Position numbers and translations under genes: made by a program
Shown here: in pieces, positions 18,468-55,762 of the stretch
Position numbering within the stretch: the first letter of the stretch is position 1
How the letters are laid out: every line of letters begins with the position of its first letter
Notes under the pieces: generated by a model
The model's database searches: none
What the model saw: only the letters and a program-made list of their open reading frames with translations
What the model was told of the DNA's origin: nothing
From: Halobacteriales archaeon QS_1_68_17
GTDB taxonomy: Archaea > Halobacteriota > Halobacteria > Halobacteriales > Haloarculaceae
DNA: 64,000 nucleotides
Direction: 5' to 3'
Assembly: GCA_003021105.1 (NCBI GenBank)
Contig: PXRG01000022.1
Location: 9,044 to 73,043, forward strand

Positions 18468-20117
18468 ATGGCAGGCTACGACCAGACCCTGCGACCGTTC
18501 CTGTGGCGCGCCGAGAAACTCTACCCCGACCGGGAGATCGTCGCCCGGACCCACGAGGGAATGGTCCGGACGACATACGCCGGCTACGCGGACGACGTCC
18601 GGCGGCTGGCGGGCGCGCTGGAAGCGGCCGGCGTCGGGCGGGGCGACCGCGTCGGGACGGTCTGCTGGAACCACGACCGGCACTTCGAGACCTACTTCGC
18701 TGCCCCGAACATGGGGGCGCAACTCCACACCATCAATCCGCTCCTCCCCGACAAGCAAATCCAGTACATCGTCGAGGACGCGGCCGACACGGTGGTGTTC
18801 GTTGACCCGTCGCTGGCCGAGAAGCTCGCCAGCGCATACGACCCCGACGCCTTCGGGAGCGTCGAGCGGATCGTCGTCGTCGGGTCGTCGGTGCCCGACC
18901 TGGACCTGCCGGGCGCGGTCGACTACGAGTCGTTCGTCGCGGGCCGGGACGCCGACTACGAGTGGCCGGAACTGCCCGGCGACCAGCCCGCGGGCATGTG
19001 CTACACCTCGGGCACGACGGGGAGGCCGAAGGGCGTCGAGTACACCCAGCAGATGCTCTGGAGCCACACGATGGCCGAGTGTACCGAGATGGGGCTGGGG
19101 CTGGACAGCTCGGACGTGGTGATGCCGGTCGTGCCGATGTTCCACGTCAACGCCTGGGGACTTCCCTTTGCGACGACGGCCGTGGGCGGGAAACACGTCT
19201 ACCCCGGCCCCTCGCCGGACCCGTCGGACCTCGCCCGCCTCATCGAGGCGGAGGGCGTCACGGTGACCGCCGGCGTCCCCACGGTCTGGCTGGGCCTGCT
19301 CGAATACATCGAGGACAACGACGTGGACCTCTCGGCGCTCGACCGGATCGTCATCGGCGGCGCGGCCGCGCCCGAGAGCGTGATCCGGCAGTTCGACGAC
19401 CTCGGGGTCGAGGTGCTCCACGCCTGGGGAATGACCGAGACCGCACCCATCGGCACCGTCGGCCACCTCAAGCCGGACCTGGAAGACACCGACTACGACG
19501 CACAGGTTGAGAAACGCGAAAAGCAGGGGCTGGTCGTCCCCGGCCTGGAGTTCAAGGTCGTCGACGACGACGGCGAGGAAACCCCGTGGGACGGCGAGGC
19601 GTTCGGCGAACTGCTGATCCGCGGTCCCTGGGTGACCGACGGCTACCACGGGCGGCCGGAGGCCAACGAGAGCGACTTCGAGGGCTCGTGGCTCCGGACC
19701 GGCGACATCGTCACGGTCGACCGGGACGGCTACGTCGAGATCGTCGACCGCGCCGACGACGTGATCAAGTCGGGCGGCGAGTGGATCTCCTCCCAGGAAC
19801 TGGAAAACGTCATCATGGCCCACGACGAGGTCAGCGAGGCCGCCGTCGTCGGCGTCCCCCACGAGAAGTGGGGGGAACGACCCGTCGCCTTCGTCGTCGC
19901 CGCGGAGGGGGCAGACAGGGACCGCCTGGTCGAGGAGGTGCTGGCGATGCTAGACGAGGAGTACCCCGACTGGTGGCTGCCCGACGAGGTGGAGTTCGTC
20001 GACGCGATCCCGAAGACCGCCACCGGGAAGTTCTCGAAGAAGGACATCCGCGAGGAACACGCCGACCCGTCGCTGGTCGAGAACAGCGCCCCCGAGCGCC
20101 GCGAGTCCGGGGACTGA
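18468..20117 (+). CDS. AMP-dependent acyl-CoA synthetase (fatty-acid--CoA ligase family)
   Basis: AMP-binding motif YTSGTTGRPKGV and C-terminal PKTATGKFSKK. ATG 18468 lies inside ORF 18402..20117. Confidence 0.9.
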   Translation: MAGYDQTLRPFLWRAEKLYPDREIVARTHEGMVRTTYAGYADDVRRLAGALEAAGVGRGDRVGTVCWNHDRHFETYFAAPNMGAQLHTINPLLPDKQIQYIVEDAADTVVFVDPSLAEKLASAYDPDAFGSVERIVVVGSSVPDLDLPGAVDYESFVAGRDADYEWPELPGDQPAGMCYTSGTTGRPKGVEYTQQMLWSHTMAECTEMGLGLDSSDVVMPVVPMFHVNAWGLPFATTAVGGKHVYPGPSPDPSDLARLIEAEGVTVTAGVPTVWLGLLEYIEDNDVDLSALDRIVIGGAAAPESVIRQFDDLGVEVLHAWGMTETAPIGTVGHLKPDLEDTDYDAQVEKREKQGLVVPGLEFKVVDDDGEETPWDGEAFGELLIRGPWVTDGYHGRPEANESDFEGSWLRTGDIVTVDRDGYVEIVDRADDVIKSGGEWISSQELENVIMAHDEVSEAAVVGVPHEKWGERPVAFVVAAEGADRDRLVEEVLAMLDEEYPDWWLPDEVEFVDAIPKTATGKFSKKDIREEHADPSLVENSAPERRESGD

Positions 20118-20226
20118 TAGTGATTGTTGCCATTAGTTTTGCGATCACGTCACGTGAACGGTTGGTTCGTGGGCTGAAGCCCACGAATTGTGACTTCTCG
20201 GCGGTAAAGAGTCGCAACAATCACTA
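20118..20226 (+). mobile_element. MITE-like element family 1, copy A (109 bp)
   Basis: 13-bp TIR TAGTGATTGTTGC/GCAACAATCACTA. Internal hairpin CGTGGGCtgaaGCCCACG. Flanked by TGA 20115..20117 and TGA 20227..20229. Confidence 0.8.
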
Positions 20227-20478
20227 TGACACCGCCAGCGCCCGACGTACCTCGCGGGGCTGTCGGTCGTCCAGCCGGGTGGACGGGCACGCCGGGGATG
20301 CGACAGCGGCGACGGACAGCGCGGACGGCTGGGCGGCCGCTCAGCGATCCGACCGGGGCTCCGTCCGGCCGGACAGGTCGTCGGGATCGAGCCGGAAGAA
20401 CCGGAACGTCACTTCGCTGGTGGGGCGGTCGAAGGCGTCGACGAGCGGAATGTCGACCGCGCGCATCCGCTGGATCGC

Positions 20479-20806
20479 CTCGGACTGGGTGTGCTGGTCC
20501 GGTTCAGCGCCTTCTGGGGCGCGGTGCTCATGATGCTGTACTGGGCGGCCAGCCTCCAAGTGGCCTGCTGGCGGGCCTCCCGCTGGCCCACGGCTGGGTG
20601 ATCGACGACCACGTCGTCTACGCGATGTTGCTGTTCGGCCTCGGGGCCTTCGGCGCGGGCCGCGTCCTCGGCCTCGACGCCTACATCGAGGACACGGACC
20701 CGTCCCCGCGCCGGTAGGGGCGACCATCACCGAAGCCCTCGACGCCTACATCGAGGACACGGACCTGGTCAGGAACAACGGCTGGCTCCGCCTGCTACTG
20801 GGGTAG
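20479..20806 (+). pseudogene. DoxX-family membrane protein relic (C-terminal part only, frameshifted, with an internal duplication)
   Basis: LGLGVLVRFSAFWGAVLMMLYWAAS in one frame, then LLAGLPLAHGWVIDDHVVYAMLLFGLGAFGAGRVLGLDAYIEDTD in another. Frame switch near 20556..20563. A 29-bp direct repeat (20672..20700 and 20737..20765) splits the natural C-terminus. Confidence 0.6.
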
Positions 20807-20943
20807 CCGGAGCCGCCGGACGGACACACGCGGGGCCGTCGGCCGGTTTTACTTTCACCGCGCGTGGCTGGCACCTATATCGAGGGCGGTCGTAGGGCCG
20901 GGTGCGGGCGGAATCGCCCGCGGTCACACGCACGTTCCCACCC

Positions 20944-21093
20944 ATGTCACAGACCGCCAGCGCGCTGGGTCGCTGTCCCGACTGCGGGGCGTCGATCCCG
21001 GCCGGCCGGCTGCTGATCGCGTACGAGCGGGCCGACGGGACGGCCGTCTACGCCGACTGTCCCGGCTGCCGGGACGTCGTCCACCCCGCCTGA
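20944..21093 (+). CDS. Small zinc-finger protein (two CPxCG-like knuckles)
   Basis: 49 aa, MSQTASALGRCPDCG...CPGCR. Its stop lies 1 nt before the next start. Confidence 0.65.
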   Translation: MSQTASALGRCPDCGASIPAGRLLIAYERADGTAVYADCPGCRDVVHPA

Positions 21094-21094
21094 A

Positions 21095-21496
21095 ATGCCC
21101 ACGTTCGACGCCGATCCCGAGCGGATCACCGCCTTCCGGGTCGACGACCGCTACCTCTTCGCCCACTACTTCGAGCGCGAGGACCTCTTCGACCGCCTCC
21201 GGGAGTACTACGACGGGGAGCAGTACCGCTTCGCGGTTCCCGCCGACGAGTTCCCGACGGTGCGGGCCGACCTCGCGGAGGAGTACGTCGAGTTCGAGGT
21301 CGTCGAGGACCTCGAACCCTACTGTGTCGTCAAAGAGCAGTACACCGAACACGCCGACATCCTTCGGGACTCGGTGGCCCACTGGGAGCGCCGCGGCCAC
21401 CTGTTTTTCCTGCTGGAGAGCGAACTCGCCGTCCGCGAGGCCGTCGAGCGCGGCGCGACGCCGGTTGCCGAGACCGACTTCGTCGTCGGGCTGTAG
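21095..21496 (+). CDS. Hypothetical protein
   Basis: 133-aa ORF with acidic, protein-like composition and tight spacing to the upstream zinc-finger gene. Confidence 0.6.
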   Translation: MPTFDADPERITAFRVDDRYLFAHYFEREDLFDRLREYYDGEQYRFAVPADEFPTVRADLAEEYVEFEVVEDLEPYCVVKEQYTEHADILRDSVAHWERRGHLFFLLESELAVREAVERGATPVAETDFVVGL

Positions 21497-21570
21497 GTGT
21501 CCTGGACCGGCCACGCCGCCGGTCGCCGTCAGTCTGTGGGACCCGCCGGGTCGCCGGACCGCCAACGCCG

Positions 21571-22104
21571 CTAGTCGCCGCCGGTCCCGATGTCGAGTTC
21601 GTCGAGCCGGTCGTTGAGTGCCGCCACCGGATCGGGGTTCCAGTCGTCCCAGTTCCCGTCGGCGACCCACGCGAATTCGACGCGCTCGTCGGGCGAGATC
21701 AGAAAGAGCGAGCGCTTCGGGACGCGGCTGAATCCGTCGCGGGTCCCCTCGTGGAGGACGCCGTACCGTTCGCAAAGTTTCTCGGCGGTGTCACACAGCA
21801 GCGGGTATCCGATCCCGTGGTCCTCGGCGAACTCCATGTGGGCGTACGGCCCGTCGCCGGAGACGCCGACCACCTGCACGTCGTCCCGGAGCGTCAGCCA
21901 CTCGTAGTCGGCGATGTCACAGACCTGGGCGGTACACACCGGCGAATAGTCGTAGACGTACACGCCCAGCACGAGCGCCTGTCCGTCGGTCAACTCCGAC
22001 AGCGTGTAGGTCCGGATCTCCCCGTCGTGAACTCCCGGGAGGGTGAACTCGGGCGCTCGCTCTCCCCGGGAAATCGGCTCGTCGCGCGACAGCGTCTGGG
22101 TCAT
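21571..22104 (-). CDS. Peroxiredoxin (AhpC/TSA-Bcp family)
   Basis: 177 aa with a redox-active SPVCTAQVC motif. Confidence 0.85.
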   Translation of the reverse strand: MTQTLSRDEPISRGERAPEFTLPGVHDGEIRTYTLSELTDGQALVLGVYVYDYSPVCTAQVCDIADYEWLTLRDDVQVVGVSGDGPYAHMEFAEDHGIGYPLLCDTAEKLCERYGVLHEGTRDGFSRVPKRSLFLISPDERVEFAWVADGNWDDWNPDPVAALNDRLDELDIGTGGD

Positions 22105-22256
22105 GTTATTCTCATCGAACGCCGTGGGAATTAATTACTCCCCTGACTAGTTGGGGACTCCCGGCGAGTGGGGCCCGGCGGACGCCCGGCTCCGGTCGGC
22201 GCGGGCGGCGGTCGTCTCGACGGCGCGGGACGGGATCGGAGCCGGAGGGACGCGGC

Positions 22257-22613
22257 TCACGCCTCGTCGGGCGCGTAGTCCTCGTGGATGCGGTCCATCC
22301 GGGCGGCCATCACGAAGTCGGTCTTGTGGAGGCCGTCGATCTTGTGGGTCCACAATTCGACGACGACCTCGCCCCACGCGAGGTGGAGGTCGGGATGGTG
22401 CCACTCCTCCTCGGCGAGTTCGCCGATCTCGTAGGTGAACTCCAGGGCGTCCCGGAAGTCGTCGAACTCGTAGGTGCCCTCCAGGTGGTGGTCGTCGACG
22501 ACCGTCCAGACGTCGCCGTCGAGTTCGTCGAGGTAGTCGGCGTACTCGTCGGGGCCGAGCGGTTCGTCGTCGCTGGTGCACGCTTCGCAGGGTTCGTCGG
22601 CGAGTGTCGCCAT
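22257..22613 (-). CDS. Pterin-4-alpha-carbinolamine dehydratase
   Basis: [33 protein letters not shown] is the PCD core motif. ATG 22613 lies inside ORF 22257..22658. Confidence 0.85.
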
Positions 22614-22657
22614 ACCCGCCTGTACACCCGGGAACTGCCTATACGTTCCGCCTTTCA

Positions 22658-22766
22658 TAGTGATTGTTGTGACTCTTTACCGCCGAGAAGTCACAATTCG
22701 TGGGCTTCAGCCCGCGAACCAACCGTTCACGTGACGTGGTCACGAAAATAATCGCAACAATCACTA
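22658..22766 (-). mobile_element. MITE-like element family 1, copy B (109 bp, inverted relative to copy A)
   Basis: The reverse complement aligns with copy A over its whole length with a handful of substitutions. Flanked by TCA 22655..22657 and TCA 22767..22769. Confidence 0.8.
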
Positions 22767-23390
22767 TCAGGTGCCCTCGACCAGCCGCTCGAGCTGCTCG
22801 GGCGGGACGGCCCCGCGGGCGGCGTGGTCGCCGTAGACGAACGTCGGAACGCCAGTGATACCCTGGCGGCGCGCCGCCTCGAACAGTTCCGAGACCCGCT
22901 CGCGTCGCCGGTCGTCGGCGACCGCCGTCCGGATCGCCGCCCCGTCGAGACCGACGTCGCCGGCGAGGCCGGCGAGTAGGTCCGCGTCGCCGATGTCCGC
23001 GCCGTCCTGCCAGATGGCATCGAAGACGGCCTCGTCGAAGTCCTCCCAGGCGTCGCGGTGCTCCTCCTTGACGTAGTGGGAGGCGACCTGCGCGGGCAGG
23101 GAATCGATGTCCGTGGCGATCCCGAGTGTCATCTCGACGTCGTACCGCTCCTGGAGCCGCCGGACGTTCGCCCTGGCCTGTTCGTAGTAATCCTCGTCCT
23201 TGCCGTCGTCGACGGCGTGGTCGATCTCGCCGTCGGGGCCGCGCTTGCGCGCCCGGAGGTCGAACGGGTGCCAGTCGACCGCGAGCGGGTCAGCGCGGCG
23301 CTGCCGGTACCGCTCCAGCGACCGCCGGCCGAGGTAACAGAACGGACACACGTAGTCCGAGTAAACGCGGATCGTCTCGGTGTTGCTCAT
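22767..23390 (-). CDS. DsbA-family thiol:disulfide oxidoreductase
   Basis: MSNTETIRVYSDYVCPFCYLG with a CPFC active site. ATG 23390 lies inside ORF 22767..23399. Confidence 0.85.
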   Translation of the reverse strand: MSNTETIRVYSDYVCPFCYLGRRSLERYRQRRADPLAVDWHPFDLRARKRGPDGEIDHAVDDGKDEDYYEQARANVRRLQERYDVEMTLGIATDIDSLPAQVASHYVKEEHRDAWEDFDEAVFDAIWQDGADIGDADLLAGLAGDVGLDGAAIRTAVADDRRRERVSELFEAARRQGITGVPTFVYGDHAARGAVPPEQLERLVEGT

Positions 23391-23518
23391 GCCCCCCATA
23401 CGCCCACGACGGACAAAAAGCGTTGTTTCCCGGCGGACAGTCCATATAAACCACCGCCGGCGGTCGACGAAAGCGCGGGGACGGCACTGTTTTGCGGGCC
23501 CGACCGGAAAGGGCCGTC

Positions 23519-24538
23519 ATGGACTGGACGCCACCCGACGACTGGCCACTGATCGAGACGGTCGAGTCACACGCCGGCGGCGAACCGCTCCGGACCGTCG
23601 TCGGGGGGTTCCCGGACCTCGACGGCGAGACCATCCTGGAGAAGCGCCGGGTAGCCCGCGAGCAGTACGACCACCTCCGCACCGCGCTGATGTGGGAACC
23701 GCGCGGCCACGCCGACATGTACGGGGCGATCCTCACCGACCCCGCGACCGACGCGGGCGACGTGGGCGTGCTGTTCACTCACAACGAGGGCTACAGCACG
23801 ATGTGCGGCCACGGCGTGATCGCGCTCGGGGCCGTCCTGCCGGAACTCGGGATCGTCGAATTGGACGCGGACGACCCGGTCGTCCGTCTCGACACGCCGG
23901 CCGGACTCGTGACCGCCCGGCCCCGGAGTAGCGACGGGCGGGTCCGCCGCGTGGCCTTCGAGAACGTGCCCGCCTACGTGGTCGCGCTCGACGAGACCGT
24001 CGGCGTGCCCGGCTACGGCACGGTCACCTACGACCTGGCCTTCGGCGGTGCGTACTACGCCTACTGCGACGCCGCGGAACTGGGCCTCTCGCTCGACGCA
24101 GACGGCGTCGACGAACTGATCGACGCCGGGCGGGCGATCAAGGCGGCCATCGCCGACGAGCGCACGATCGACCACCCGGCCGACGACGACCTCGGGTTCC
24201 TCTACGGCGTCATCTTCGCCGGCGATCCACGGGACGGGGGGGACTGCCGCAACGTCTGTGTCTTTGCCGACGGCGAGATCGACCGCAGCCCCACGGGGAC
24301 CGGCGTCAGCGGCCACCTCGCGCGCCGGCACGCCCGCGGCCGCCTCGCCCCCGGCGACGCCTACACCGTCGAGAGCATTGTCGGGTCGACCCTCACCGGC
24401 CGCGTCGCCGGGACCGTCGACTACCACGGCCGCGACGCCGTCGTGCCCGAGATCGAGGGACAGGCACACGTCGTCGGTACCGGCCAGTTCACGGTCGACC
24501 CGGAGGACCCGTTCGGCGAGGGGTTCCTGCTCCGGTGA
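23519..24538 (+). CDS. Proline-racemase-superfamily enzyme, predicted trans-3-hydroxy-L-proline dehydratase (Cys/Thr catalytic pair)
   Basis: First catalytic position STMCGH (Cys codon 23804..23806). Second position DRSPTGTG, with Thr (24293..24295) where racemases and epimerases have Cys. Confidence 0.75.
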   Translation: MDWTPPDDWPLIETVESHAGGEPLRTVVGGFPDLDGETILEKRRVAREQYDHLRTALMWEPRGHADMYGAILTDPATDAGDVGVLFTHNEGYSTMCGHGVIALGAVLPELGIVELDADDPVVRLDTPAGLVTARPRSSDGRVRRVAFENVPAYVVALDETVGVPGYGTVTYDLAFGGAYYAYCDAAELGLSLDADGVDELIDAGRAIKAAIADERTIDHPADDDLGFLYGVIFAGDPRDGGDCRNVCVFADGEIDRSPTGTGVSGHLARRHARGRLAPGDAYTVESIVGSTLTGRVAGTVDYHGRDAVVPEIEGQAHVVGTGQFTVDPEDPFGEGFLLR

Positions 24539-24996
24539 CGACCGCCGCGCTCGACGTGTCGGTTCAATTACTGGTGCGAAAAAAAGACAGCAGTATTTAA
24601 TTCCGTCGCCGGAGAGAGGGAACCCCGGCGAATCCGACCCGAATCCCCACAGTATCGGCACCGCAAACGCTGGACTGCTCGGTTTCGACGATCAGTCGCC
24701 GACGAAAGCCGCCGGACGGAATCGCCCGCGAAGTTCGGACGGCGACCGCAAAAAGACGACGGGCGCACCTGGCGACCAAACGACGGAGAAGGCCGGTGGT
24801 CGAAAGGTATCGGAAATAAATATATATAATTGTTCGTATAATTCGGTTCCAGGGACGCGGCCCTCGGACGGCAGCGATCCCGACACCGGCGCGGTGTGCC
24901 GGTCGTCTGCGGCCGGGATCGCCTTACACTACTATGCCTGTAATTCGACTGCCAGGCGTTCGCTGCGGACGTTCCCGTCTCGCGGGAGAAGATCTT

Positions 24997-25015
24997 CGTT
25001 TGTTCACGACAAACG
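24997..25015. promoter_or_regulatory. Palindrome CGTTTGTTCACGACAAACG (site A), 5 nt beyond the IclR-2 stop
   Basis: Perfect 7-bp arms with a 5-nt centre; anchored on the IclR-2 stop at 25020. Confidence 0.5.
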
Positions 25016-25019
25016 CGGT

Positions 25020-25814: not shown

Positions 25815-25845
25815 ACCCCCCCGGACGACCTCGTCCCACTTATGT

Positions 25846-25862
25846 GTTTGCATACAGCAAAC
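25846..25862. promoter_or_regulatory. Palindrome GTTTGCATACAGCAAAC (site F), 32 nt upstream of the IclR-2 ATG
   Basis: Perfect 6-bp arms; anchored on the IclR-2 reading frame. Confidence 0.5.
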
Positions 25863-25925
25863 CGCGTACTCGTCGCTGCCGTCGCAGTGGCCGGATCTCG
25901 CTCGCCGACCGTCGCTGACGCGCAC

Positions 25926-25948: not shown

Positions 25949-25986
25949 TCGACCACTTTTTTGTGGCGGTCGACCGACGGGGTAGT

Positions 25987-26634
25987 ATGCTCGTCGACAT
26001 GACCCTGCCGTTGGAGGAGGGGATGCAGTTGTTCCCGGGGTTGCCGAGTTTCGAGTCCGAACGGTCCGTCTCCGACGAGACGGGCGCGATCACCCGCCGG
26101 TTCGCGTCGAGCACGCACCAGGGGACCCACGTCGATGCGCCGCGCCACTACGTCCCCGACGGGCCGACGCTCGGGGACCTGGGACTCGACCGGTGGTTCG
26201 GGGCGGCGACGGTGGTCGACCTCCGGGATCGCCGCGGGGAGCCGATCGACGCCGAAGCGCTGGCGGCCAGCGGCGTCGACACCGAACCCGGCGACCGGCT
26301 CCTGCTGTTGACCGGTGACGTCGACCACCGGTTCGGCGATCGGGACTTCTTCGAGGAGGCGGCCCACCTCACCGTCTCGGGCGCGGAGTGGCTGGTCGAC
26401 CGCGAGCCGGCGCTCGTGGGCAACGACTTCCTGACGGAGGCGCTGACCGACCCCGAACGACCCGTCCACCACACGCTCCTGGAGGCGGGCGTTCCGGTCG
26501 TGGAGTACCTCTGTGAGGCCGACGCCGTGGCTGACCACGACAGCGTCGAGTTCACCTGCCTCCCGCTGAACGCGCCGGCCTTCGAGGCGTCGCCGGTCCG
26601 GGCGGTGGCACGGACTGACGGGGGCGACCCCTGA
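25987..26634 (+). CDS. Cyclase-family protein (kynurenine/aryl formamidase-like)
   Basis: HQGTHVDAPRHY metal-binding motif. ATG 25987 lies inside ORF 25963..26634. Confidence 0.8.
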   Translation: MLVDMTLPLEEGMQLFPGLPSFESERSVSDETGAITRRFASSTHQGTHVDAPRHYVPDGPTLGDLGLDRWFGAATVVDLRDRRGEPIDAEALAASGVDTEPGDRLLLLTGDVDHRFGDRDFFEEAAHLTVSGAEWLVDREPALVGNDFLTEALTDPERPVHHTLLEAGVPVVEYLCEADAVADHDSVEFTCLPLNAPAFEASPVRAVARTDGGDP

Positions 26635-26768
26635 CGAGCCGGGGGGTGGTACGGACCGACGGCGGGCGATTCCCGAGGGCCTGGCAGTGGCACGGACCGA
26701 CGAGGACGACTTCCGACCGGGCAGGCGGTGGCGCGGACCGACCGGTCGGCTCCTCGCCGCCACGATCA
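26605..26768. repeat. 4 x 41-bp degenerate tandem repeat
   Basis: Units start at 26605, 26646, 26687 and 26728, each opening with GTGGYRCGGACYGAC. The first unit encodes the cyclase C-terminus. Confidence 0.85.
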
Positions 26769-29541: not shown

Positions 29542-29755
29542 GCGCCCGGGACCCCCGGTGAGCCGGCGAAACTGCGCACGGGATTCCCGACGACGCGCCG
29601 GCCAGAGACCGCCGGGACACGGCCGACGGCGGGCCCGCCAGCGAGTGCCCGGATGGACCCGACCGCGGCGGCAAGACCGACCGGAAACCCGGCCGGAGTG
29701 GTGCGGTCGCGGGGGCGGGGAAAGCTATACGGTCGCGCCCACTGGAAAGGCCCAC

Positions 29756-30208
29756 ATGGCCGACGAGATCACCGTCGCGGACCCCGAGGCGGCCGTCCGC
29801 GAGTGGTTCGACGCGCTCGGGACGTACTGTGCGAACGTCGACTACGAGTCCGCCCGCGACATCTTCGCCGACGACGTCCGGTCGTTCGGGACGAAAGCCG
29901 AGATCGTCAGCGGCCTCGACCGCCTGCAGGAGAACCAGTGGACCGGCATCTGGCCATACATCGAGGGGTTCGGCTTCGACCTCGAGGAGGTGATCGCCTT
30001 CGGCGACGACGACCTGGCGTGGGGAGCGGCCCCGTGGTCGTCGACCGGCTTCGACGAGGACGGCGAACCGTTCCACCGCCCCGGCCGCGCGACGGTCGTG
30101 CTGGAGCGCCGGGACGGCGTCTGGCTGGCGGTCCACACGCACTTCTCGCTGTACCCGGGCACGCCACAGTTGACCTACGGCCCCGACGGTCGCGGGGAGC
30201 GAGACTGA
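29756..30208 (+). CDS. SnoaL/NTF2-like small protein
   Basis: 150 aa from MADEITVADPEAAVREWFDAL. Internal ATG of ORF 29558..30208. Fold call is tentative. Confidence 0.55.
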   Translation: MADEITVADPEAAVREWFDALGTYCANVDYESARDIFADDVRSFGTKAEIVSGLDRLQENQWTGIWPYIEGFGFDLEEVIAFGDDDLAWGAAPWSSTGFDEDGEPFHRPGRATVVLERRDGVWLAVHTHFSLYPGTPQLTYGPDGRGERD

Positions 30209-30316
30209 TACTGGTGGCTGTAATTCTTTTACTCACCAGTCTCTGCTATCTGCGGAGACAGACTCTTTCCGCCTGGATTCTCAATTCGAGTTTTCACGTA
30301 CTTACAGCCACCAGTA
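30209..30316 (+). mobile_element. MITE-like element family 2, copy 1 (108 bp)
   Basis: 15-bp TIR TACTGGTGGCTGTAA/TTACAGCCACCAGTA. Flanked by TGA 30206..30208 and TGA 30317..30319. Confidence 0.85.
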
Positions 30317-30694
30317 TGACGGCCCGCGGGACACCGCGGCCCACCGGGACGAACGGCGCTCGACGCCCGCGACGGTTCCGGGCGGACGTCCGTGTGACGG
30401 AATACCACGGCGTGCGTCCGGCGACCGGAGACGCCGCCCGAACCGCGGAGCGAGCACCCGTCCCCGCGACCGGCCGCCGCATCGTTTTCCCGTCACGTGA
30501 AACAGTTGTCCCGACGACAGGACGGGGAGCGGTCGGTCACTCGCGGCCGGTTTTCGACGATCCCGACGCCGACGGCGACCGGAACCACACGACAGGGAGT
30601 CGACGGTCGGACACCCGCGAGACGAATCGGGTCGTAGCGGTCCCCAGACGGGTGTGGCGCAAGGCTTTTGCCGGACTACTCTTCATAATTTAAC

Positions 30695-43236: not shown

Positions 43237-43389
43237 ATGTGCGTGAGATGTGTTCACGCTCACTTATACCCTCTGGGGATTAGCATTTCGTTGACAGTTC
43301 CCCTCCGGCCGGCACCGGGGCGTCGCTGGGGGAGCGTTGCCGGGAGCCGCCGGCTCGATGACAGAGGCATTTTCATGACACCTTCCTCA

Positions 43390-43497
43390 TACTGGTGGCT
43401 GTCATTCTTTTACTCACCAGTCTCTGCTATCTGCGGAGACAGACTCTTTCCGCCTGGATTCTCAATTCGAGTTCTCACGTACTTACAGCCACCAGTA
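43390..43497 (+). mobile_element. MITE-like element family 2, copy 2 (108 bp)
   Basis: Differs from copy 1 at 2 positions. Flanked by TCA 43387..43389 and TCA 43498..43500. Confidence 0.85.
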
Positions 43498-43773
43498 TCA
43501 CTTCTGTCGCAGTCGCGGGGTGTGCGGCGAGAACACAGTCTCTCGATAGTCCTGACCTCGACGGAAGACCGTCCGTGAAGCCGTGATCGTGGAATTACAT
43601 TTCCTTCGGGGGTACCGGGCGGCAGCGTCGAAACTATAGCGAACCGGAATTATAAGCGAGCGTTTCGAACGGGCGAAATGTGTTTTAGATTATATTCCCC
43701 GGCGGGAACGTTCCGCCACGGATGAAATGACGACATTCGAATAGGTAGATCCGGGAACGATATTCGGGAGTCG

Positions 43774-45030: not shown

Positions 45031-45031
45031 G

Positions 45032-48188: not shown

Positions 48189-49393
48189 TCAGTTCTGTTC
48201 CTCGTAGACCCGGGCGACGTTCCCGTAGAGGTAGGATGCGTCGGCGTTTTCCTGGGTGATCATCGCGTGGTTGCACTTCATCCAGGGCCACCAGGTCTGG
48301 TCCTGGGCCTCGTACTCGACCATCTCGGCCGGGCCCCAGAACTGGTTACTCCACGGTTCGATCCCGAAGACCTCCTTGTTCTCGATGCTGAGGTCATCGC
48401 CGGGCTCGACGGTGTCGCCGACCTGCGGGAGCGTGTCCTCCCCACCCTCGAGGTAATCCCACATCAGTTCGAGCGTCAGCGGCGCGTACATGTGGAGTGG
48501 CTGGTCGACAGTTCCGGCCCGCCGTCGATGCCGAACGCCATGACGTGCCCCTCCTCGTCTTTGGGGTAGTACTCGCCGAACTGTTCGAGAGCGGTCAGTG
48601 CACCCATTCCGCTCCCGACGTTGTTCGAGTAGATGGCGTCGACGTCCGGGTTCGCCTGGAGGGCGCTCTGGGTCTTCGGGGCCGAATCCTCGGGCGTCCC
48701 GTCGCTCTCGATTCGCGCGACGACCTCGACGCTGTCGGGGACGTTCTCGGTGAACCCGAAGAGACGCTGCTGGCTCGTCGTCGACTCGAAGTTGAAGACG
48801 CTCGTGATCACCTTCGCGCTGTCCATCCCCTGGTCCTCCATCATCTGGGTGAACCGTTCGGCCGCCACCCGGCCACCCCGATACTGGCCGAACAGCGCGC
48901 CGATGAGGATGTCCTCGGACAGCGTCGCCGTGTCGAAGTTCATCACCGGGATGTTCTCCTCCGTGGCCGCCTCGACGATCTGGACCGACGCCTCCGCGTC
49001 GTAGGGGTTCAGCAGGATGCCGTCGACTCCCCGGTTGATCACGTTGCGCGCGTCCTGGGTCTGCTTGGTGGCGTCGAACTCGGCGTCGAGGATGGTGATC
49101 TCGACGTCGTCCATGTCCTGCGTGTACCACTTGGCCGCCTGCCCCTGCACGAACAGGCCGGCCTGCCCCATCGACTTCATCGAAACCGCGAAGTGCTGGG
49201 AGTCACTCCCCGCGGTCTCCGTCTCGCCCATCGTGGTACCGCCGTCGCCACCGTCGCCGCCGTCACCGCCGTCACCACCACTGCCGTCACCGTCACCGCC
49301 ACCGCTGTCGCCGCCGCCACTCTCGAGACAGCCGGCCAGCCCGATGCCACTCGCCAAGCCGATCCCTCTCAGGAAGAGTCTCCTGCTTGTCAT
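48189..49393 (-). pseudogene. Periplasmic-binding-protein-type sugar-binding lipoprotein, interrupted by a 1-nt frameshift
   Basis: N-part is ORF 48476..49393 (Tat/lipobox MTSRRLFLRGIGLASGIGLAGC, RbsB-like core). C-part is ORF 48189..49130 (...VDQPLHMYAPLTLELMWDY...). Frames switch near 48510..48517. Confidence 0.7.
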
Positions 49394-49571
49394 TTGTATC
49401 GTGGGGGTGAATTCCCGGATACAAAGTTCCGAGTTCGATAGTTAATTCTTACGGTTTTTAATTACTGTTTGCCGAGCGGCGGGACGACAGTCACGAGCGC
49501 GCCGGTTTCAGCTCCCGGGGTCCCGTCCCGCCGCGGGCGTCCTCTCGGGGTCGACGGTGCCCCCGCGGGCA

Positions 49572-50381
49572 TCAGGCGGTCGGCGAACTCGCGGAGTCGC
49601 TCTCGCCGACCGATTCCGTGGCCCCCATCGGCTGGCCGGAAACCATCATGGCGACGATCGCGTCGCGCGTCACCTCGTCGCTGTCGACGACGTCGACGAC
49701 GCGTCCCTGGAAGAGGACGGCGATCCGGTCGGTCATCGACAGCACCTCCTCGAGGTTGTGGTCGATGATGACGATGGTGTGGCCGGTGTTTTGCAGCTCC
49801 TCGACGAGGCGCTCGACGTGGTCGACGGCCGCCTTCGAGAGCGCCGACGTCGGCTCGTCGAGGAAGACGATGTCGGGATCGCTGACCAGTGCGCGCCCGA
49901 TGGCGATGGCCTGGCGCTCGCCGCCCGAGAGGTACTCGACCGGCGTCTCCGGGTCGAGGTGGATGTCCAGCCGCTCGCTGAGGATGCGCTCGGCCTCCTC
50001 CTGCATCCGCTCCGTGTCGATGACAGGGAGAATGCCGCCGAGTTTCTTCACCGGGTTCCGACCCAGAAACATGTTCTCGGCGACCGAGAGCTGGTCGACC
50101 AGCGCGAGGTCCTGGTAGACCGTGCCGATGCCGAGCTTCCGTGCGTGTTTGGGTCCGTCGATAGTCACCGGCTTGCCGTCGATCAGGATCTCCCCTTCGT
50201 CGGGCTGGTGGAGGCCCACGAGCGTCCGGATGAGCGTCGACTTGCCAGCGCCGTTGTCGCCGACCAGCCCCAGGATTTCGTTGTCGCGGAGTTCGAGGTT
50301 CACGTCCGAGAGCGCCTCGACGGTCCCGAACCGTTTCTGGAGATTCCTGACCTCGATCCGCGCTGGGCCGTCGTCGGTCAT
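49572..50381 (-). CDS. Sugar ABC transporter ATP-binding protein (single NBD)
   Basis: GDNGAGKSTL, LSGGERQ, FLDEPTSAL. ATG 50381 lies inside ORF 49572..50579. Confidence 0.9.
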   Translation of the reverse strand: MTDDGPARIEVRNLQKRFGTVEALSDVNLELRDNEILGLVGDNGAGKSTLIRTLVGLHQPDEGEILIDGKPVTIDGPKHARKLGIGTVYQDLALVDQLSVAENMFLGRNPVKKLGGILPVIDTERMQEEAERILSERLDIHLDPETPVEYLSGGERQAIAIGRALVSDPDIVFLDEPTSALSKAAVDHVERLVEELQNTGHTIVIIDHNLEEVLSMTDRIAVLFQGRVVDVVDSDEVTRDAIVAMMVSGQPMGATESVGESDSASSPTA

Positions 50382-50520
50382 GCTACCACCTATGGGCGAC
50401 ACCGCGTAAAAAAACACCCGGTCGCCCAGGGCGATGGGTCGCCTTCGCGGAACCCACGCCGCGGCGGCCAGCGCGGCCCCGCCCGCGTCATTTAATTGTC
50501 GCCCCGTCGATGCGTCGTCC

Positions 50521-51726
50521 GTGTCCGACCACTCCACCGTCCGCGATCCGAAGTGGCTCCACCAGCACGTCCGGGGCATCCTGAACTTCTACTACCCGAC
50601 ATGCGTCGATCACCGGTTCGGCGGGTACGTCCCGCAGATGAGCGACCGCGACGGCCACGTCTACGACGGACTGCACAAGTCCGTCGTCGCGACGGCGCGG
50701 TTCGTCTATAACTTCAGCGTCGGGGAACTGCTCGACGGACCGGACTGGTGTCGCTCCGTCGCACACCACGGCGTCGACTTCCTGCTCGACGCCCACCGCC
50801 GGGCCGACGGCGGCTACCCGTGGCTGCTCGCGGGCCGCGAAGTCGAGGATTCCGCGCGAACCTGCTACGCCCACGCGTTCGTCCTCCTGGCGTTCGCCAC
50901 CGCCGCCAAGGCGGGCGTCCCGCGGGCCCGCGACCACGTCGCCGAGACGGCCGACTGCATCGACGAGCGGTTCTGGGAAAGCGACCACGGCCTCTGTCGG
51001 GGCAAACTCGACGCGGACTGGCATCCGACCGAGCGCTACCGCGGGCAGAACGCGAACATGCACGTCTGCGAGGCGATGCTGGCTGCCCACGAGGCCACCG
51101 GGGAGGAGCGCTACCTCGACCGCGCCGCGACGATCGCGGAACGGCTGGCCCGCGACCTCGCCGACGCGGGCGATGGCCTGGTCTGGGAACACTACACGGC
51201 CGACTGGGAGTTCGACTGGGAGTACAACCGCGACCAGCCCGAACACCTGTTCCGGCCGTGGGGGTACCAGCCCGGCCACCTCCTCGAGTGGGCGAAACTG
51301 CTGGTCCGCCTCGACGGCCACCGCGAGCGCGGGTGGCACCTCGACCGCGCCCGGCGATTCTTCGACGCCGCGGTCGAGCAGGGGTGGGACGCGGACGGCG
51401 GCGGCTTCGTCTACACCGTCGACCGCGAGGGCGATCCCGTGGTCGAGGATAAGTACTACTGGCCGCTCGCCGAGGGGTTCGCGGCGGCCGCCCGCCTGGC
51501 GGCGGTAACCGACGAGGACCGCTACCGGGAGTGGTACGACCGCATCTGGGCATACGCCTGGGAGCACGTCATCAACCGACGCTACGGCAACTGGTACGGC
51601 AGGCTCACCCCCGACAACCGACTCCACGACGGCATCGACGCGACGCCGAAAGTAAAGACCGACTACCACCCGGTCGGGTGCTGTTACGACGTGCTCCGGA
51701 CGCTCGGTGGGGACGGCCGATCCTGA
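50521..51726 (+). CDS. AGE-superfamily (N-acylglucosamine 2-epimerase-like) sugar isomerase/epimerase
   Basis: (alpha/alpha)6-type repeats with aromatic-rich motifs. GTG 50521 is preferred because TTTAAT (50491..50496) sits about 27 nt upstream; the alternative start is ATG 50434. Confidence 0.75.
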   Translation: MSDHSTVRDPKWLHQHVRGILNFYYPTCVDHRFGGYVPQMSDRDGHVYDGLHKSVVATARFVYNFSVGELLDGPDWCRSVAHHGVDFLLDAHRRADGGYPWLLAGREVEDSARTCYAHAFVLLAFATAAKAGVPRARDHVAETADCIDERFWESDHGLCRGKLDADWHPTERYRGQNANMHVCEAMLAAHEATGEERYLDRAATIAERLARDLADAGDGLVWEHYTADWEFDWEYNRDQPEHLFRPWGYQPGHLLEWAKLLVRLDGHRERGWHLDRARRFFDAAVEQGWDADGGGFVYTVDREGDPVVEDKYYWPLAEGFAAAARLAAVTDEDRYREWYDRIWAYAWEHVINRRYGNWYGRLTPDNRLHDGIDATPKVKTDYHPVGCCYDVLRTLGGDGRS

Positions 51727-51834
51727 TACTGGTGGCTGTAAGTACGTGAAAACTCGAATTGAGAATCCAGGCGGAAAGGGTCTGTATCCGCAAATAGCAG
51801 AGACTGGTGAGTAAAAGAATTACAGCCACCAGTA
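51727..51834 (-). mobile_element. MITE-like element family 2, copy 3 (108 bp, inverted)
   Basis: The reverse complement differs from copy 1 at 3 positions. Flanked by TGA 51724..51726 and TGA 51835..51837. Confidence 0.85.
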
Positions 51835-51876
51835 TGAACCGCGGGCGCACGTCGACGCCTCGGGGATGGGACGCCC

Positions 51877-52647
51877 TCACCAGCGGGTCTCCTCGGCGAA
51901 TTCGGTCGCCGGGAAGAGGTCGCGGAACTCGTCGGGCACCCGGTCGTCGGTGACCAGGAGGTCGATCTCGTCGACGGTTGCGAACTCGCGGAACTGCTGG
52001 CGGCCGAACTTCTCGACGACCGTGACGACCACCGACCGCGTGGCGTTGTCCATGACGTGTCGTTTGACGCTGGCTTCCTCCTCGTTGGGGCACGTCAGGC
52101 CGCCGGTCCGCCTGATACCGTTGACCCCGAGGAAGGCCAGGTCGAAGTTCGACGAGCGGATGTACGACTCGGCCTGCGGCCCCACGAGCGCCTTCGTCTC
52201 GGGACGGAAGCCGCCGCCGGTCGACTTGACGCTCCCGGCGTGGTCGCCCAGTTCCAGCGCCAGCAGCGGCGAGTTCGTCACGGCGACGAACGACCCGTCG
52301 GTCGGGGCGGCCCGCGCGACCTGCATCGTCGTCGTTCCGGAATCGAAGAAGACGATCTGGCCCTCGCGGATCTCCTCGACGGCGCGGTCGGCGATCGCGC
52401 GCTTCTCGTCGAGTTGCTGGACGACTCGCTGGTCGAACGACGGCTCGCCGCCGACGTTCGTCGCGGGGACGGCCCCGCCGTGTGCTCGCTCGATTAGTTC
52501 CCGGTCGGCGAGTTCGCGGAGGTCGCGGCGGATCGTCGACGCGGAGACGTCGAGCAGGTCCGCCAGCCGCTCGACCGAGAGCCCGTCGTGTTTCGTCACC
52601 AGTTCGACGATGTCCCGCCGGCGCTTCTCCGGCGGCGTCACTGGCAC
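51877..52647 (-). CDS. DeoR/GlpR-family transcriptional regulator
   Basis: HTH (LSVERLADLLDVSASTIRRDLRELA) plus a sugar-binding domain. GTG 52647 chosen inside ORF 51877..52824; start uncertain. Confidence 0.8.
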   Translation of the reverse strand: MPVTPPEKRRRDIVELVTKHDGLSVERLADLLDVSASTIRRDLRELADRELIERAHGGAVPATNVGGEPSFDQRVVQQLDEKRAIADRAVEEIREGQIVFFDSGTTTMQVARAAPTDGSFVAVTNSPLLALELGDHAGSVKSTGGGFRPETKALVGPQAESYIRSSNFDLAFLGVNGIRRTGGLTCPNEEEASVKRHVMDNATRSVVVTVVEKFGRQQFREFATVDEIDLLVTDDRVPDEFRDLFPATEFAEETRW

Positions 52648-53618
52648 CCACCCCGTCTGATTGCCGGGCCTGGCGTCGCCGTCATACCTGCCCGGACGCC
52701 CCGTGTCGGGATATATCCCTGTGTTTCCCGGGAACCGCCTGGCCTGCAATCCCCCGCCGGCACTGCCACGTTCCGTGACGGTGCGCCGTGCCGCGAAGTC
52801 TCCGGACGGCAACCGGCACCCCACGCCGGCGTCCGAGAATCTCGCGCCCGGGATCGATAGTTACTCACCACAAGTAGATAATAATATGTAGCTGATATAA
52901 ATAGTAACAAACCACATTGTGTACAATTTGAACCCCGCTGTCAGAGACGTGCTACACTGATAGCTGGCGCGGAGTGGGCAGTAACAACCATTGCGTGTTT
53001 ATCTTTTCAACTATCTAATTACGAGCAGCAATTAATTTGATACGCCAGCGACCAGTCGGTCACGGGCAGGGCGACCACCGGCAGATACGGGCCCGGCGGG
53101 TGCCGCGTCGTCGGTGAGAGGCGGGAGAGCATCGACGGCCGTCGGCGACTGCCACGCGGCCGCACATCCAGCGCCCGCGGCCCGGCATACTGCCCACTTT
53201 GTGCCGTGCCGGGGGTGTGTCCGACACTGATCGGGGTAGGGGGATTACAGGTATAGAGCTGTAAATACCGGTTCGACCGGCGGTGACCCGTCACTCCGTT
53301 TGCCAGGGACAAAGCGGCCGTCTTCCAGGCCCCGTGCGACCGCGGTCGGTCGGCCGACAGTCGGTCGCGGACCCGCGGTGTCGTGCGAAACAGCCGGCGT
53401 TCGTCGTCGACAGACCCGGGCGGATCGCGTCCCCGCGGCTGTCCGGGGCGTCCAGCCCGGCGACGCCGGGTTCCGTGCGCCGTCCCGACCTGCAGGGACA
53501 GTCGGACCCGTCAAGCCCACCGTGACATTCCAACACAACCGGGCGAACCGGAGGGTGTCAGATAAGCGGCGTCTCCGCGCGCCCCTTACTCGCGGCACGC
53601 CAGCGCGACGCCCGTGTT

Positions 53619-53636
53619 GTTTTGTGGATCACAAAC
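53619..53636. promoter_or_regulatory. Palindrome GTTTTGTGGATCACAAAC (site E)
   Basis: About 150 nt upstream of the racemase-like gene. Related to sites A, B, C, D and F. Confidence 0.4.
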
Positions 53637-53696
53637 ACCGCCGTGGGGCGGGTCGAGCGGCGGGTGGGACTGGGAACAGCCGGCGAATCCGGTGCG

Positions 53697-53719
53697 GGCG
53701 TTTGTCCGGTGCAAACGCC
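53697..53719. promoter_or_regulatory. Palindrome GGCGTTTGTCCGGTGCAAACGCC (site C)
   Basis: 8-bp arms. The core CGTTTG-N7-CAAACG at 53699..53717 lies 61 nt upstream of ATG 53778. Confidence 0.5.
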
Positions 53720-53777
53720 GCGACCCGGCGGGCGACCGGGCCAAACGTTCATTAGCGAGCGGAGGAAACCGGGGCGC

Positions 53778-54500
53778 ATGGCTGACCAGACGGGAACGAG
53801 CGGGTCCTCCGCCGGTGGCGACTGTCTGGGCGTGGTGATGCTGGACACGACCTTCCCGCGGCCACCCGGTGACGTCGGCAACGCCCGCTCCTACGACTAT
53901 CCGGTCGCGTTCGCGGTCGCCGAGGGAGCGGGTCCCGTCGACGTGGTCCGGGAACAGGAGGTCGCCATCGAGCCCTTCGCGGACGCGGCGCGGACGCTGG
54001 TCGACCGCGGGGCCGTGGCGATCACCACGAGTTGCGGGTTCCTGTTGTCACACCAGGACCTGCTGAGCGAGCAGGTCCCCGAGGTACCGGTGTTCACGAG
54101 CAGCCTGCTCCAGATTCCGGTCGTCGCGTCGATGCTCGCCCCGGACGAGCGGATCGGCGTCATCTCGGCCGACGAGCAGGCGCTGGACCGGCTCGACCAC
54201 CCGGTACTCGACGAGTACGCGGACCGGCTGGTCGTCGGGGGGCTGTCCGACGGCGACAGCTTCCAGGCGACGATCGTCGAGGAGAGCGCGCCGACGCTCG
54301 ACCGGGAGGCGGTCGGGGAGGAGGTGGTCGCGGCGGCCGAGGCGGTGGTCGACCGCGGACACGTGGGGGCGATCCTCTTCGAGTGTACGAACCTCCGGCC
54401 GTACGTCGACGAGGTCCGCGCCGGGACCGGCCTGCCGGTGTTCGACTACCTCACGTTCGCGGACATGGCCTGGCGGGCCGGCCGGGGAACCCGGCAGTGA
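53778..54500 (+). CDS. Asp/Glu/hydantoin-racemase-superfamily protein
   Basis: 240 aa from MADQTGTSGSS. Has the VVMLDTTFPRPPGDVGNA block and a second half-domain (ILFECTNLRPYV). ATG lies inside ORF 53622..54500. Confidence 0.7.
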   Translation: MADQTGTSGSSAGGDCLGVVMLDTTFPRPPGDVGNARSYDYPVAFAVAEGAGPVDVVREQEVAIEPFADAARTLVDRGAVAITTSCGFLLSHQDLLSEQVPEVPVFTSSLLQIPVVASMLAPDERIGVISADEQALDRLDHPVLDEYADRLVVGGLSDGDSFQATIVEESAPTLDREAVGEEVVAAAEAVVDRGHVGAILFECTNLRPYVDEVRAGTGLPVFDYLTFADMAWRAGRGTRQ

Positions 54501-54521
54501 GCGCCGCGGGACGCCCGCTCA

Positions 54522-54598
54522 TACTGTCGGCTACAATCCCTCGAAGAATTTCGCCCCCCGCGGTGCCGAATATCTTCACGAAGTTATAGCCGACAGTA
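54522..54598. mobile_element. MITE-like element family 3 (77 bp)
   Basis: TIR TACTGTCGGCTACAA/TTATAGCCGACAGTA (14 of 15). Flanked by TCA 54519..54521 and TCA 54599..54601. Confidence 0.7.
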
Positions 54599-55762
54599 TC
54601 AGGCCATCCCCTCGCTCTCGACGGGGTCGCCGCCGGCGAACCGGTCGAGCGAGAGTTTCCCGACGTCGAACCGGTCGGTCTCCCCGGCGACGAGGAGGTC
54701 GGCCATCGCGCCGCCGACGACCGGGGCCTGCTGGACCCCGTGCCCGGAGAAGCCGCAGGCGAGGTAGAACCCGTCGACGTCGGCCGGGCCGACGATGGCG
54801 TTTCCGTCGTCCGTGTGGGACTGGAGGCCGCTCCAGCCGTTGCGGACCTCCAGGTCCGCGAGCGCGGGGACCAGTCGCTGGACCTTCTCGGTCGTCCGGA
54901 GGTAGTAGTCGTACCCGACCTGGCCGTCGGTGGCCCCGTCGGGGTCTCCGACGTCGTGGATGTCCTGTCCGGTGTCACAGACCAGCATCGAGCCGCTGGA
55001 CTCGACCTTGAAGTAACACTCCCGCTCGGGGTCGATCACCAGCGGGCCGGTGGTCTGGTCGATCGTGCTCGTGACCATGATCCGCCGGATCAGCAGTTCG
55101 ATCGGGACGTCGACCCCGGCCATCGCCCCGACGCGGGCGGCCCAGGGGCCGGCGGCGTTGAGCACCGCGTCGACCTCGTAGGTCCCGGCCTGGGTCTCGA
55201 CGGCCGCGACCGCGCCGTCCTCGACGACGACGTCGGTGACGGCGGTCCCGGTGTGGATCATCGCCCCGCGGTCGACGGCCGCGCGGCCGAACGCCTGCGT
55301 CAGCGAGTGGGGATCGACGTGGCCGCAGTCGGGGGCGTACATCGCCCCCCGGATCTCGGTTGCGTCCAGCGAGGGGAACGCGCGGGCCGCCTCTTCCGGG
55401 GAGTGCATCTCGGTCGTGACGTCGAACGCATGGAGGTGCTGTGCGCGTTCCCGCCACTCGATCTCCGCCTCGCGGGAGTGGTAGAGATACATGTACCCCG
55501 TCTGTTCGAACGCCAGATCCTCGCCGACGTTGTCCGCGAAGTTCTGGAAGTACTCGATCGCGCGGTTCCCGATCTCGATGTTGACGGGGGTCGTGTAGGT
55601 GTTCCGGACCCCGCCGGCCGCCTTGCCCGTCGATCCCTCTCCGAGCTGTCCCCGCTCGAAGAGCACACCCCTCGCGTCGTACTCGTCGGCCAGGTGAAAG
55701 AGAGTACTCGTGCCGACAGCACCGCCGCCGATCACGGCGACGTCGAATGACGTCTCTGACAT
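54599..55762 (-). CDS. FAD-dependent oxidoreductase (DAO / sarcosine-oxidase-beta-like)
   Basis: MSETSFDVAVIGGGAVGTSTLFHLA dinucleotide-binding motif. ATG 55762 lies inside ORF 54599..55921. Confidence 0.85.
   Translation of the reverse strand: MSETSFDVAVIGGGAVGTSTLFHLADEYDARGVLFERGQLGEGSTGKAAGGVRNTYTTPVNIEIGNRAIEYFQNFADNVGEDLAFEQTGYMYLYHSREAEIEWRERAQHLHAFDVTTEMHSPEEAARAFPSLDATEIRGAMYAPDCGHVDPHSLTQAFGRAAVDRGAMIHTGTAVTDVVVEDGAVAAVETQAGTYEVDAVLNAAGPWAARVGAMAGVDVPIELLIRRIMVTSTIDQTTGPLVIDPERECYFKVESSGSMLVCDTGQDIHDVGDPDGATDGQVGYDYYLRTTEKVQRLVPALADLEVRNGWSGLQSHTDDGNAIVGPADVDGFYLACGFSGHGVQQAPVVGGAMADLLVAGETDRFDVGKLSLDRFAGGDPVESEGMA

Follow-up and report, generated by a model that had tools for sequence, protein, structure and literature searches.

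In a 64,000-nucleotide stretch of the genome of the archaeon Halobacteriales QS_1_68_17 (contig PXRG01000022.1, positions 9,044 to 73,043; hereafter the window, haloarchaeal DNA of 68% GC), six small elements with terminal inverted repeats (TIRs) are each flanked by a directly repeated trinucleotide, TGA or TCA. How do such elements come to lie exactly on the stop codons of genes? A previous model-made description of this DNA (the sequence-only reading) had located the six elements, with TA at both ends, and had named five of them as abutting a gene whose stop codon is one of the two triplets. All of these positions, ends, and flanks were confirmed; the five open reading frames (ORFs) end exactly at the triplets, and their Pfam matches (AMP-binding, DSBA, SnoaL_3, GlcNAc_2-epimerase, and DAO) agree with the gene names that had been given. 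The elements belong to three families, with two copies of family 1 (1A and 1B), three of family 2 (2-1, 2-2, and 2-3), and one of family 3. The explanation that we consider likely is that they are transposable elements of the miniature inverted-repeat type (MITEs) that duplicate a T-N-A triplet (N, any nucleotide) and integrate in the manner of the PIF/Harbinger-IS5 (PHIS) superfamily, and that their bias toward stop codons arises through selection.

A single triplet at the empty site

Copy 2-3 (51727 to 51834) could be compared with its unoccupied site in a closely related strain. The JGI metagenome contig L115 encodes an AGE epimerase 99% identical in protein sequence to that of the window, and the nucleotide alignment of the two is 98% identical. 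In L115, the allele is empty and reads GGCCGACCC TAA ACCGCGGGCGCACG, with a single TNA that is the stop codon of the gene (L115 positions 3265 to 3267). The filled allele of the window reads GGCCGATCC TGA, then 108 bp of element, then TGA ACCGCGGGCGCACG; the flank after the triplet, ACCGCGGGC, is common to both alleles. The two TNA copies of the filled allele thus correspond to a single one in L115, the kind of empty orthologous site by which the sequence-only reading had proposed to confirm the duplication. The stop is TAA in the empty allele and TGA, twice, in the filled one, indicating an extra point change at the stop in one of the lineages. Filled and empty alleles therefore coexist in strains that are 98% identical, an insertion polymorphism. 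The family 3 copy of the window was also found in L115.

The duplication extends to copies elsewhere. Searches for further copies were made without presupposing their flanks, and among the matches listed, 101 of 122 copies of families 1 to 3 beyond the window carry the identical TNA on both sides. For families 2 and 3, this holds for 86 of the 107 two-ended copies listed (43 TGA, 35 TCA, 5 TTA, and 3 TAA), and the remainder are mostly one base off. All 15 further copies of family 1 in a metagenome scan were flanked by TNA/TNA. In about 90% of copies, the duplicated triplet has G or C in the middle, and this base is identical rather than complementary on the two sides in 6/6 window copies. In addition, the orientation of the asymmetric element interior is independent of that of the triplet (22, 21, 19, and 16 copies in the four combinations among the matches listed), indicating that the triplet derives from the target. 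Together, these data prove a 3-bp target duplication, of TNA in general and not of TGA alone: the duplication that the sequence-only reading had proposed stands, and its restriction to TGA does not.

No second clean empty site was obtained. For copy 1B, the adjoining DsbA gene, whose protein is 100% identical to one from the QS_1_68_17 metagenome-assembled genome (MAG), is on record only from that source MAG. For copy 1A, a contig from a strain 97 to 98% identical (L133, positions 1 to 3260) lacks the MITE but also the 861 bp beside it, relative to window positions 20118 to 21093. The absent segment contains gene fragments and a gene for a 49-amino-acid CPxCG zinc-ribbon protein (20944 to 21093). 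It also includes a local duplication of CCTCGACGCCTACATCGAGGACACGGACC (20672 to 20700 and 20737 to 20765) in an apparent C-terminal fragment of a DoxX-like gene. The L133 junction reads GGGGAC TGA AATGCCC, with both breakpoints on TGA stops (20115 to 20117 and 21091 to 21093); the right one lacks an inverted repeat. The gap may have arisen through aberrant excision or through a deletion that joined two TNA targets.

Three other accounts of the element boundaries can be weighed against these data. The triplets might belong to the element, as an extension (T.A) of its inverted repeat, without any target duplication. The outer bases of the triplet, T and A, would suit a longer inverted repeat, and in Haloquadratum small elements with prominent repeats, about 80 and 110 bp long, have been reported to show "no target duplication" (PMC3119063). 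However, the middle base is identical in the 6/6 window copies and in the 101/122 others among the matches listed, five window copies have as their triplet a conserved gene's in-frame stop, and the empty L115 allele retains one triplet, which refutes the idea for copy 2-3; we regard it as hardly credible in general. Equally hard to credit is that these are Stowaway-like MITEs of the IS630/Tc1-mariner kind whose terminal TA is the duplicated target. The TA CTG...CAG TA ends loosely recall those of Tc1/mariner elements (TA CAGT...), but a TA duplication needs TGA-TA-TGA at the empty site, which is in fact a single TAA, and the five copies at stop codons would have needed TATGA after each stop. 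The elements also resemble REP sequences and REPINs, which are likewise short palindromic doublets and gather immediately downstream of genes, and inverted REP doublets are moved through single-stranded DNA by a RAYT/IS200-type HUH tyrosine transposase. HUH transposition makes no target duplication and occurs in fixed orientation beside a specific tetra- or pentanucleotide, and REPINs carry a GTAG or CGTC tag. In favor of such an origin, the 77- to 78-bp elements are whole-length palindromes of two 39-bp halves with covariation in the hairpin (see below), and IS200/IS605-type elements are abundant in haloarchaea (PMC3119063). Nevertheless, the change from one TNA to two at the empty site, the variable middle base, the random orientation relative to the triplet, and the absence of a GTAG or CGTC tag from the elements make a REPIN-like origin very improbable.

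Target motif and proposed mode of integration

The target of the TNA-duplicating MITEs is wider than the triplet. With each site oriented as TGA, the position before the triplet (-1) is C in 57/86 sites (66%) and the position after it (+3) is G in 48/84 (57%) among the matches listed. Within these loci, the TGA/TCA triplets of DNA called intergenic carry an insertion in 0.19% of cases when no flank matches, in 1.26% when one does, and in 6.0% when both do. A symmetrized logo of the sites that are not stop codons gives the palindrome K-A-C|T-S-A|G-T-M. The IS1031 group of IS5 makes 3-bp duplications. PIF/Harbinger elements have the target TWA and the NuwaII group C|TNA|G, and both are placed in the PHIS superfamily (PMC4482050); three-nucleotide insertion sites are also mentioned for the IS1031 group (PMC2516522). 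As judged by this analogy, the target architecture of the present elements matches the PHIS signature.

We propose that the elements are nonautonomous, noncoding, palindromic transposable elements of the MITE type, in size classes of about 78 to 80 and 108 to 109 bp. They integrate at T-N-A within a palindrome of approximately K-A-C|T-S-A|G-T-M and duplicate the triplet. A transposase supplied in trans would cut with a 3-nucleotide stagger (C^TNAG); from the target signature, we infer a DDE enzyme, most likely of PHIS type. Any TNA is a stop triplet on one of the strands: TGA and TAA as read, TCA and TTA as complements. The genomes concerned have 60 to 70% GC, and most of their genes end in TGA, often in the context GAC TGA G, a good fit to the target; an insertion at such a stop rebuilds it and leaves the protein unchanged. 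Insertions into the far more common out-of-frame TNA triplets inside genes would be purged by selection, and the survivors would be enriched at stops, as in five of six copies in this gene-dense window and about one-third across the family.

Stop codons and selection

TGA is the stop codon of 43 among the 62 genes called in the window, and by a crude gene map based on GC at third codon positions (GC3), 41 of the 182 TGA/TCA triplets at which insertion is nondisruptive are stops. The probability of at least five of six copies falling on stops is 0.003, or about 0.03 if the preceding C is also demanded. The pattern in the window exceeds chance, yet the sample is small. We therefore turned to copies at other loci, where genes were called with a crude GC3-based caller after removal of the elements; 75% of the sequence of these loci was called coding, and a large share of the called-intergenic class is probably uncalled genes. 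Among the matches listed, families 2 and 3 occupy 29 stops, 53 intergenic sites, 15 sites in called genes, and 10 near a locus edge; families 1 to 3 together occupy 33 stops, 61 intergenic sites, and 16 in called genes. Of the 61 intergenic copies listed, 18 lie in divergent spacers and 9 in convergent ones, tandem spacers hold 11 in each half, and 12 are beside a locus edge. The share of listed copies on stops is thus about 30 to 40% across the family; with about one-third on stops, stop targeting is not obligate.

To account for the target motif, a position-weight model of eight flanking positions was built from the non-stop insertions. Mean motif weight was 2.0 at stops, 1.0 at intergenic triplets, and 0.75 at in-gene triplets, the high weight of stops being due to gene ends that often read (G/T)AC TGA G. 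Under the model, unselected insertions would be 60% genic and about 34% intergenic, with about 6% at stops. In-gene copies were observed in only 10/80 cases (about 12%, versus the modeled 60%), strong evidence that purifying selection against in-gene copies does most of the sorting. Among the nongenic survivors, 28/70 (40%) lie on stops. The expected share is 16% if all called-intergenic DNA is available for insertion (P = 1e-6), 28% if half of it is (P = 0.016), and 37% if one-third is (P = 0.31). In the youngest burst, in Halobellus salinus (copies with at most two mismatches to the master copy), 3 copies are on stops, 8 are intergenic, and 4 are in called genes; with n = 15 the numbers are small, but the low share on stops points the way it should if the bias is built by selection rather than by targeting. 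Of the two possibilities that the sequence-only reading had left open, true targeting of stop codons is therefore unsupported as a rule, and purifying selection is borne out, together with a palindromic motif that fits gene ends. We conclude that the stop-codon bias is mostly a by-product of a TNA target, of GC-rich genomes that use TGA in a fitting context, and of the loss of in-gene copies.

Several observations weigh against this explanation. At equal C/G context, insertions per site at stops are 4 to 9 times those at called-intergenic TSA sites (S, G or C); wider sequence context accounts for part of this, and the fuller eight-position model still leaves a 1.1- to 2.5-fold excess at stops. 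Part of this residual excess may come from the crude gene caller, and part may be real. Sizes are sharply conserved across families of unrelated sequence, which simple decay of a parent insertion sequence (IS) does not explain, and an autonomous element with matching ends was not found in approximately 1 Mb of haloarchaeal DNA. IS5 and PIF elements have G-rich ends, of which the TA...TA termini of the present elements are not typical.

The excess at stops is also what would be seen if copies there were favored for a function, either because their hairpin, placed at the mRNA 3' end, stabilizes or terminates the transcript or because the target motif evolved to mimic the gene end as a safe haven. 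That motif weight is highest at stops agrees with this idea, and divergent (promoter) spacers are not avoided relative to convergent ones, so that simple promoter avoidance fails to explain the excess. The elements are also predicted to fold well: window copies form a TIR stem with internal hairpins (z scores of -4 to -7), and a palindromic hairpin forms in either orientation. A directional role in RNA was considered and rejected, since at stop sites 12 elements have the same orientation as the gene and 17 the opposite; a symmetric palindromic hairpin needs no orientation. Against a function at stops, approximately 60 to 70% of the copies listed lie elsewhere, the youngest burst has only its 3 of 15 there, stops hold only about 6% of the total motif weight, a T-tract does not consistently follow the hairpin, and the excess vanishes if only one-third of called-intergenic sites are available. 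Overall, we consider this reading unlikely.

Positions and neighboring genes of the six elements

All six elements have TA at both ends and perfect TIRs of 12 to 15 bp. At 77 to 109 bp, they have no coding capacity beyond chance ORFs that cross them. Copy 1A (20118 to 20226; 109 bp, noncoding) has 13-bp TIRs, TAGTGATTGTTGC, and lies between TGA at 20115 to 20117, the stop of an acyl-CoA ligase gene (18402 to 20117, plus strand), and TGA at 20227 to 20229. Copy 1B (22658 to 22766; 109 bp) is inverted relative to 1A, with 94% identity, between TCA at 22655 to 22657 and TCA at 22767 to 22769; the right triplet is the stop of the DsbA-like gene (22767 to 23399, minus strand). The family 2 copies are each 108 bp, with 15-bp TIRs, TACTGGTGGCTGTAA. 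Copy 2-1 (30209 to 30316) is flanked by TGA at 30206 to 30208, the stop of a SnoaL-like gene (29558 to 30208, plus strand), and TGA at 30317 to 30319. Copy 2-2 (43390 to 43497), in direct orientation relative to 2-1, is intergenic, between TCA at 43387 to 43389 and TCA at 43498 to 43500. It has no attached gene: no ORF of at least 20 amino acids terminates at either flanking triplet, and the element lies about 130 to 150 bp upstream of the start of a minus-strand gene. Copy 2-3 is inverted relative to both; TGA at 51724 to 51726 to its left is the stop of the AGE-family epimerase gene (50434 to 51726, plus strand), and TGA at 51835 to 51837 follows it. Finally, family 3 (54522 to 54598) is a 77-bp, whole-length imperfect palindrome and a member of a widespread 78-bp family; it lies between TCA at 54519 to 54521 and TCA at 54599 to 54601, the latter being the stop of an FAD oxidoreductase gene (54599 to 55921, minus strand). 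In each gene-abutting case, the triplet is in frame in the preinsertion sequence and so was already the stop of the gene before insertion, consistent with the earlier proposal that insertion on a stop regenerates it. These inverted repeats do not recur elsewhere in the window (terminal matches numbered 8 and 4, with chance expectations of 0.16 and 0.55), and Rfam and tRNA scans of the window gave no matches.

At every such junction, the terminal TA and the duplicated TGA form an outward-reading ATG (20226 to 20228, 22656 to 22658, and equivalents), and two long ORFs begin on it (20226 to 20717, plus strand, and 22257 to 22658, minus strand). The junction ATG was rejected as a gene start. The gene for pterin-4a-carbinolamine dehydratase has its own likely start (22613 to 22611) and a TATA-like box about 30 nucleotides upstream of that start, both downstream of the junction; MITE 1B is 45 nucleotides upstream of the likely start, just outside that promoter. 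Elsewhere, the window has imperfect tandem repeats at 17226 to 17363 and 26595 to 26742, with periods of 37 and 41 bp, about three copies each, and 63 to 81% identity.

A wider group in Halobacteria

Families 2 and 3 have a common subterminal motif, TTCACGNANTTANAGCCNNCAGTA, which we scanned for in one genome per prokaryotic species. The scan returned at least 114 loci, all from Halobacteria; host genera among the matches listed are Halobellus, Halomicrobium, Natronomonas, Halapricum, Halovenus, Haloarcula, Halosimplex, Haloplanus, and Saliphagus, along with many MAGs. Among the 107 two-ended elements listed, 71 measure 78 bp and 16 measure 108 bp. Scanning the loci with the flanks as a constraint revealed more families with different ends (TAGTGACTGCTGTA, TACGGACGGTTGTA, TACGGATTATTGTA, and TACGGTCGTTCGTG) in the same size classes (78 to 80 and 108 to 109 bp). 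These extra TA...TA, TNA-flanked families occur at loci L003, L009, L011, L036, L045, L055, L057, L060, L071, L073, L076, L080, L084, L086, L088, and L112. Several families often share one locus, and one extra-family element, at 98 bp, is outside the size classes.

Families 1 and 2 were also compared with plasmids by BLAST, which gave one distant family 1 match and nothing else. This relative, on a Halovenus salina plasmid (NZ_CP112975.1, 15238 to 15346; locus L132, 3001 to 3109), has 71% identity and TGA/TGA flanks within a palindromic site, GTC TGA ... TGA GAC. A second copy lies in a duplicated segment of the same plasmid.

The 78-bp family is an imperfect palindrome from end to end, made of two 39-bp halves. 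In each half, the terminal repeat is accompanied by a stretch with CGTGA and by one side of a GC-rich hairpin at the center, TTCGnCACCCC|GGGGTGnCGAA; both halves look like complete transposon ends. Across 39 distinct copies, 91% of palindrome cells are in standard pairs, and both-side changes occur in ten pairs (72 cells). None of 500 shuffles reached this score, and slid controls were also far below it, although kinship of the sequences inflates such scores. The covariation fits two co-evolving transposase-binding ends; a hairpin that functions in RNA or single-stranded DNA would look alike.

Search for an autonomous partner

The autonomous partner with matching TIRs for which the sequence-only reading had suggested a search was not found in the approximately 1 Mb of haloarchaeal DNA, in one plasmid IS5 element, or in viral contigs. 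Unpaired matches to the subterminal motif were considered as candidates and turned out to be degraded MITEs. Paired terminal repeats 130 to 3,000 bp apart were likewise rejected, being two neighboring MITEs around ordinary genes; at these loci, the contents were an HTH_10-like gene (L067), an acidic protein (L011), or a second small element (L007). When all ORFs of the loci with 180 or more amino acids were compared with one another, no repeated transposase emerged. The IS5-family element of the Halovenus salina plasmid was set aside because its ends, ACGGCTCTATTGAATCCGC, are unrelated. In viral contigs, two scans with the TIRs alone returned only single chance matches, and a scan with the subterminal motif returned none.

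Relation to known elements and significance

Apart from a parent element, which was not found in the DNA searched, the elements have the features of MITEs: they are shorter than 500 bp, noncoding, and bounded by TIRs, with a fixed 3-bp duplication and an empty site, and they occur in many dispersed, polymorphic copies. Like the MITEs of the Tourist, PIF/Harbinger, NuwaII, and IS5 groups, they combine small size, lack of coding sequence, and TIRs with a 3-bp T-N-A duplication in a palindromic target. They differ from PHIS and IS5 elements in having archaeal hosts and in that neither a PHIS or IS5 transposase nor an autonomous element sharing these ends turned up in the DNA searched; the middle base of the triplet, G or C in 90% of the present copies, also differs from PHIS and fits GC-rich genomes. 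We propose a PHIS-like mode of action and do not claim membership in PHIS or IS5, because no matching transposon end was found.

Among archaeal elements, the closest in description are the small mobile repeats (SMRs) of Haloquadratum walsbyi (HqIRS41, 42, 43, and 55) reported by Dyall-Smith et al. in 2011, of 79 to 80 and 103 to 122 bp (PMC3119063). They have prominent inverted terminal repeats unlike those of any transposon, and their mobilization was called "enigmatic"; one strain-specific insertion was annotated as "in_gene, sequence not affected," no target duplication was reported, and insertion into near-terminal palindromes (PATE) of IS605-type elements was described (PMC3119063). The present group is like the SMRs in host group, noncoding nature, terminal repeats, and two size classes (77 to 80 and 107 to 109 bp here) but shows a 3-bp duplication, whereas SMRs were described without one. 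The two may be the same kind of element; this comparison, made with the published description only, is a lead and not a result. The Haloquadratum plasmid PL47 contained none of the present elements.

The sequence-only reading knew of no description of this insertion pattern for archaeal MITEs. That statement is fair within the literature searched, in which no such group was described; archaeal examples are few in a review of prokaryotic MITEs from 2024, and this pattern is not among them (PMC10969869). It is limited, however, by the C|TNA|G target known from PHIS (PMC4482050) and by the similar-sized Haloquadratum elements already described (PMC3119063). MITEs with PHIS-like integration are a known kind, and what is of interest here is a Halobacteria-wide group with conserved sizes and no known transposase. 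A broader alternative is that the stop-codon bias is partly adaptive, with a KAC|TGA|G target that mimics the commonest gene end or with retained 3'-end hairpins, and that the whole group, Haloquadratum SMRs included, is moved by a transposase family not yet recognized in archaea; we hold this to be possible though doubtful.

For haloarchaeal genomes, TNA-duplicating MITEs mean that in many genes about 110 bp of mobile DNA lies exactly between the stop codon and the 3' region, which matters for annotation. These results also show that a pattern of insertion at stop codons can arise without any sensing of the reading frame, a caution for similar claims. Finally, widespread haloarchaeal mini-elements gain a defined mechanism, in which 3 bp (TNA) are duplicated at a palindrome of the C|TNA|G type. 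This mechanism indicates the kind of transposase to seek and may also explain how the Haloquadratum SMRs are mobilized.

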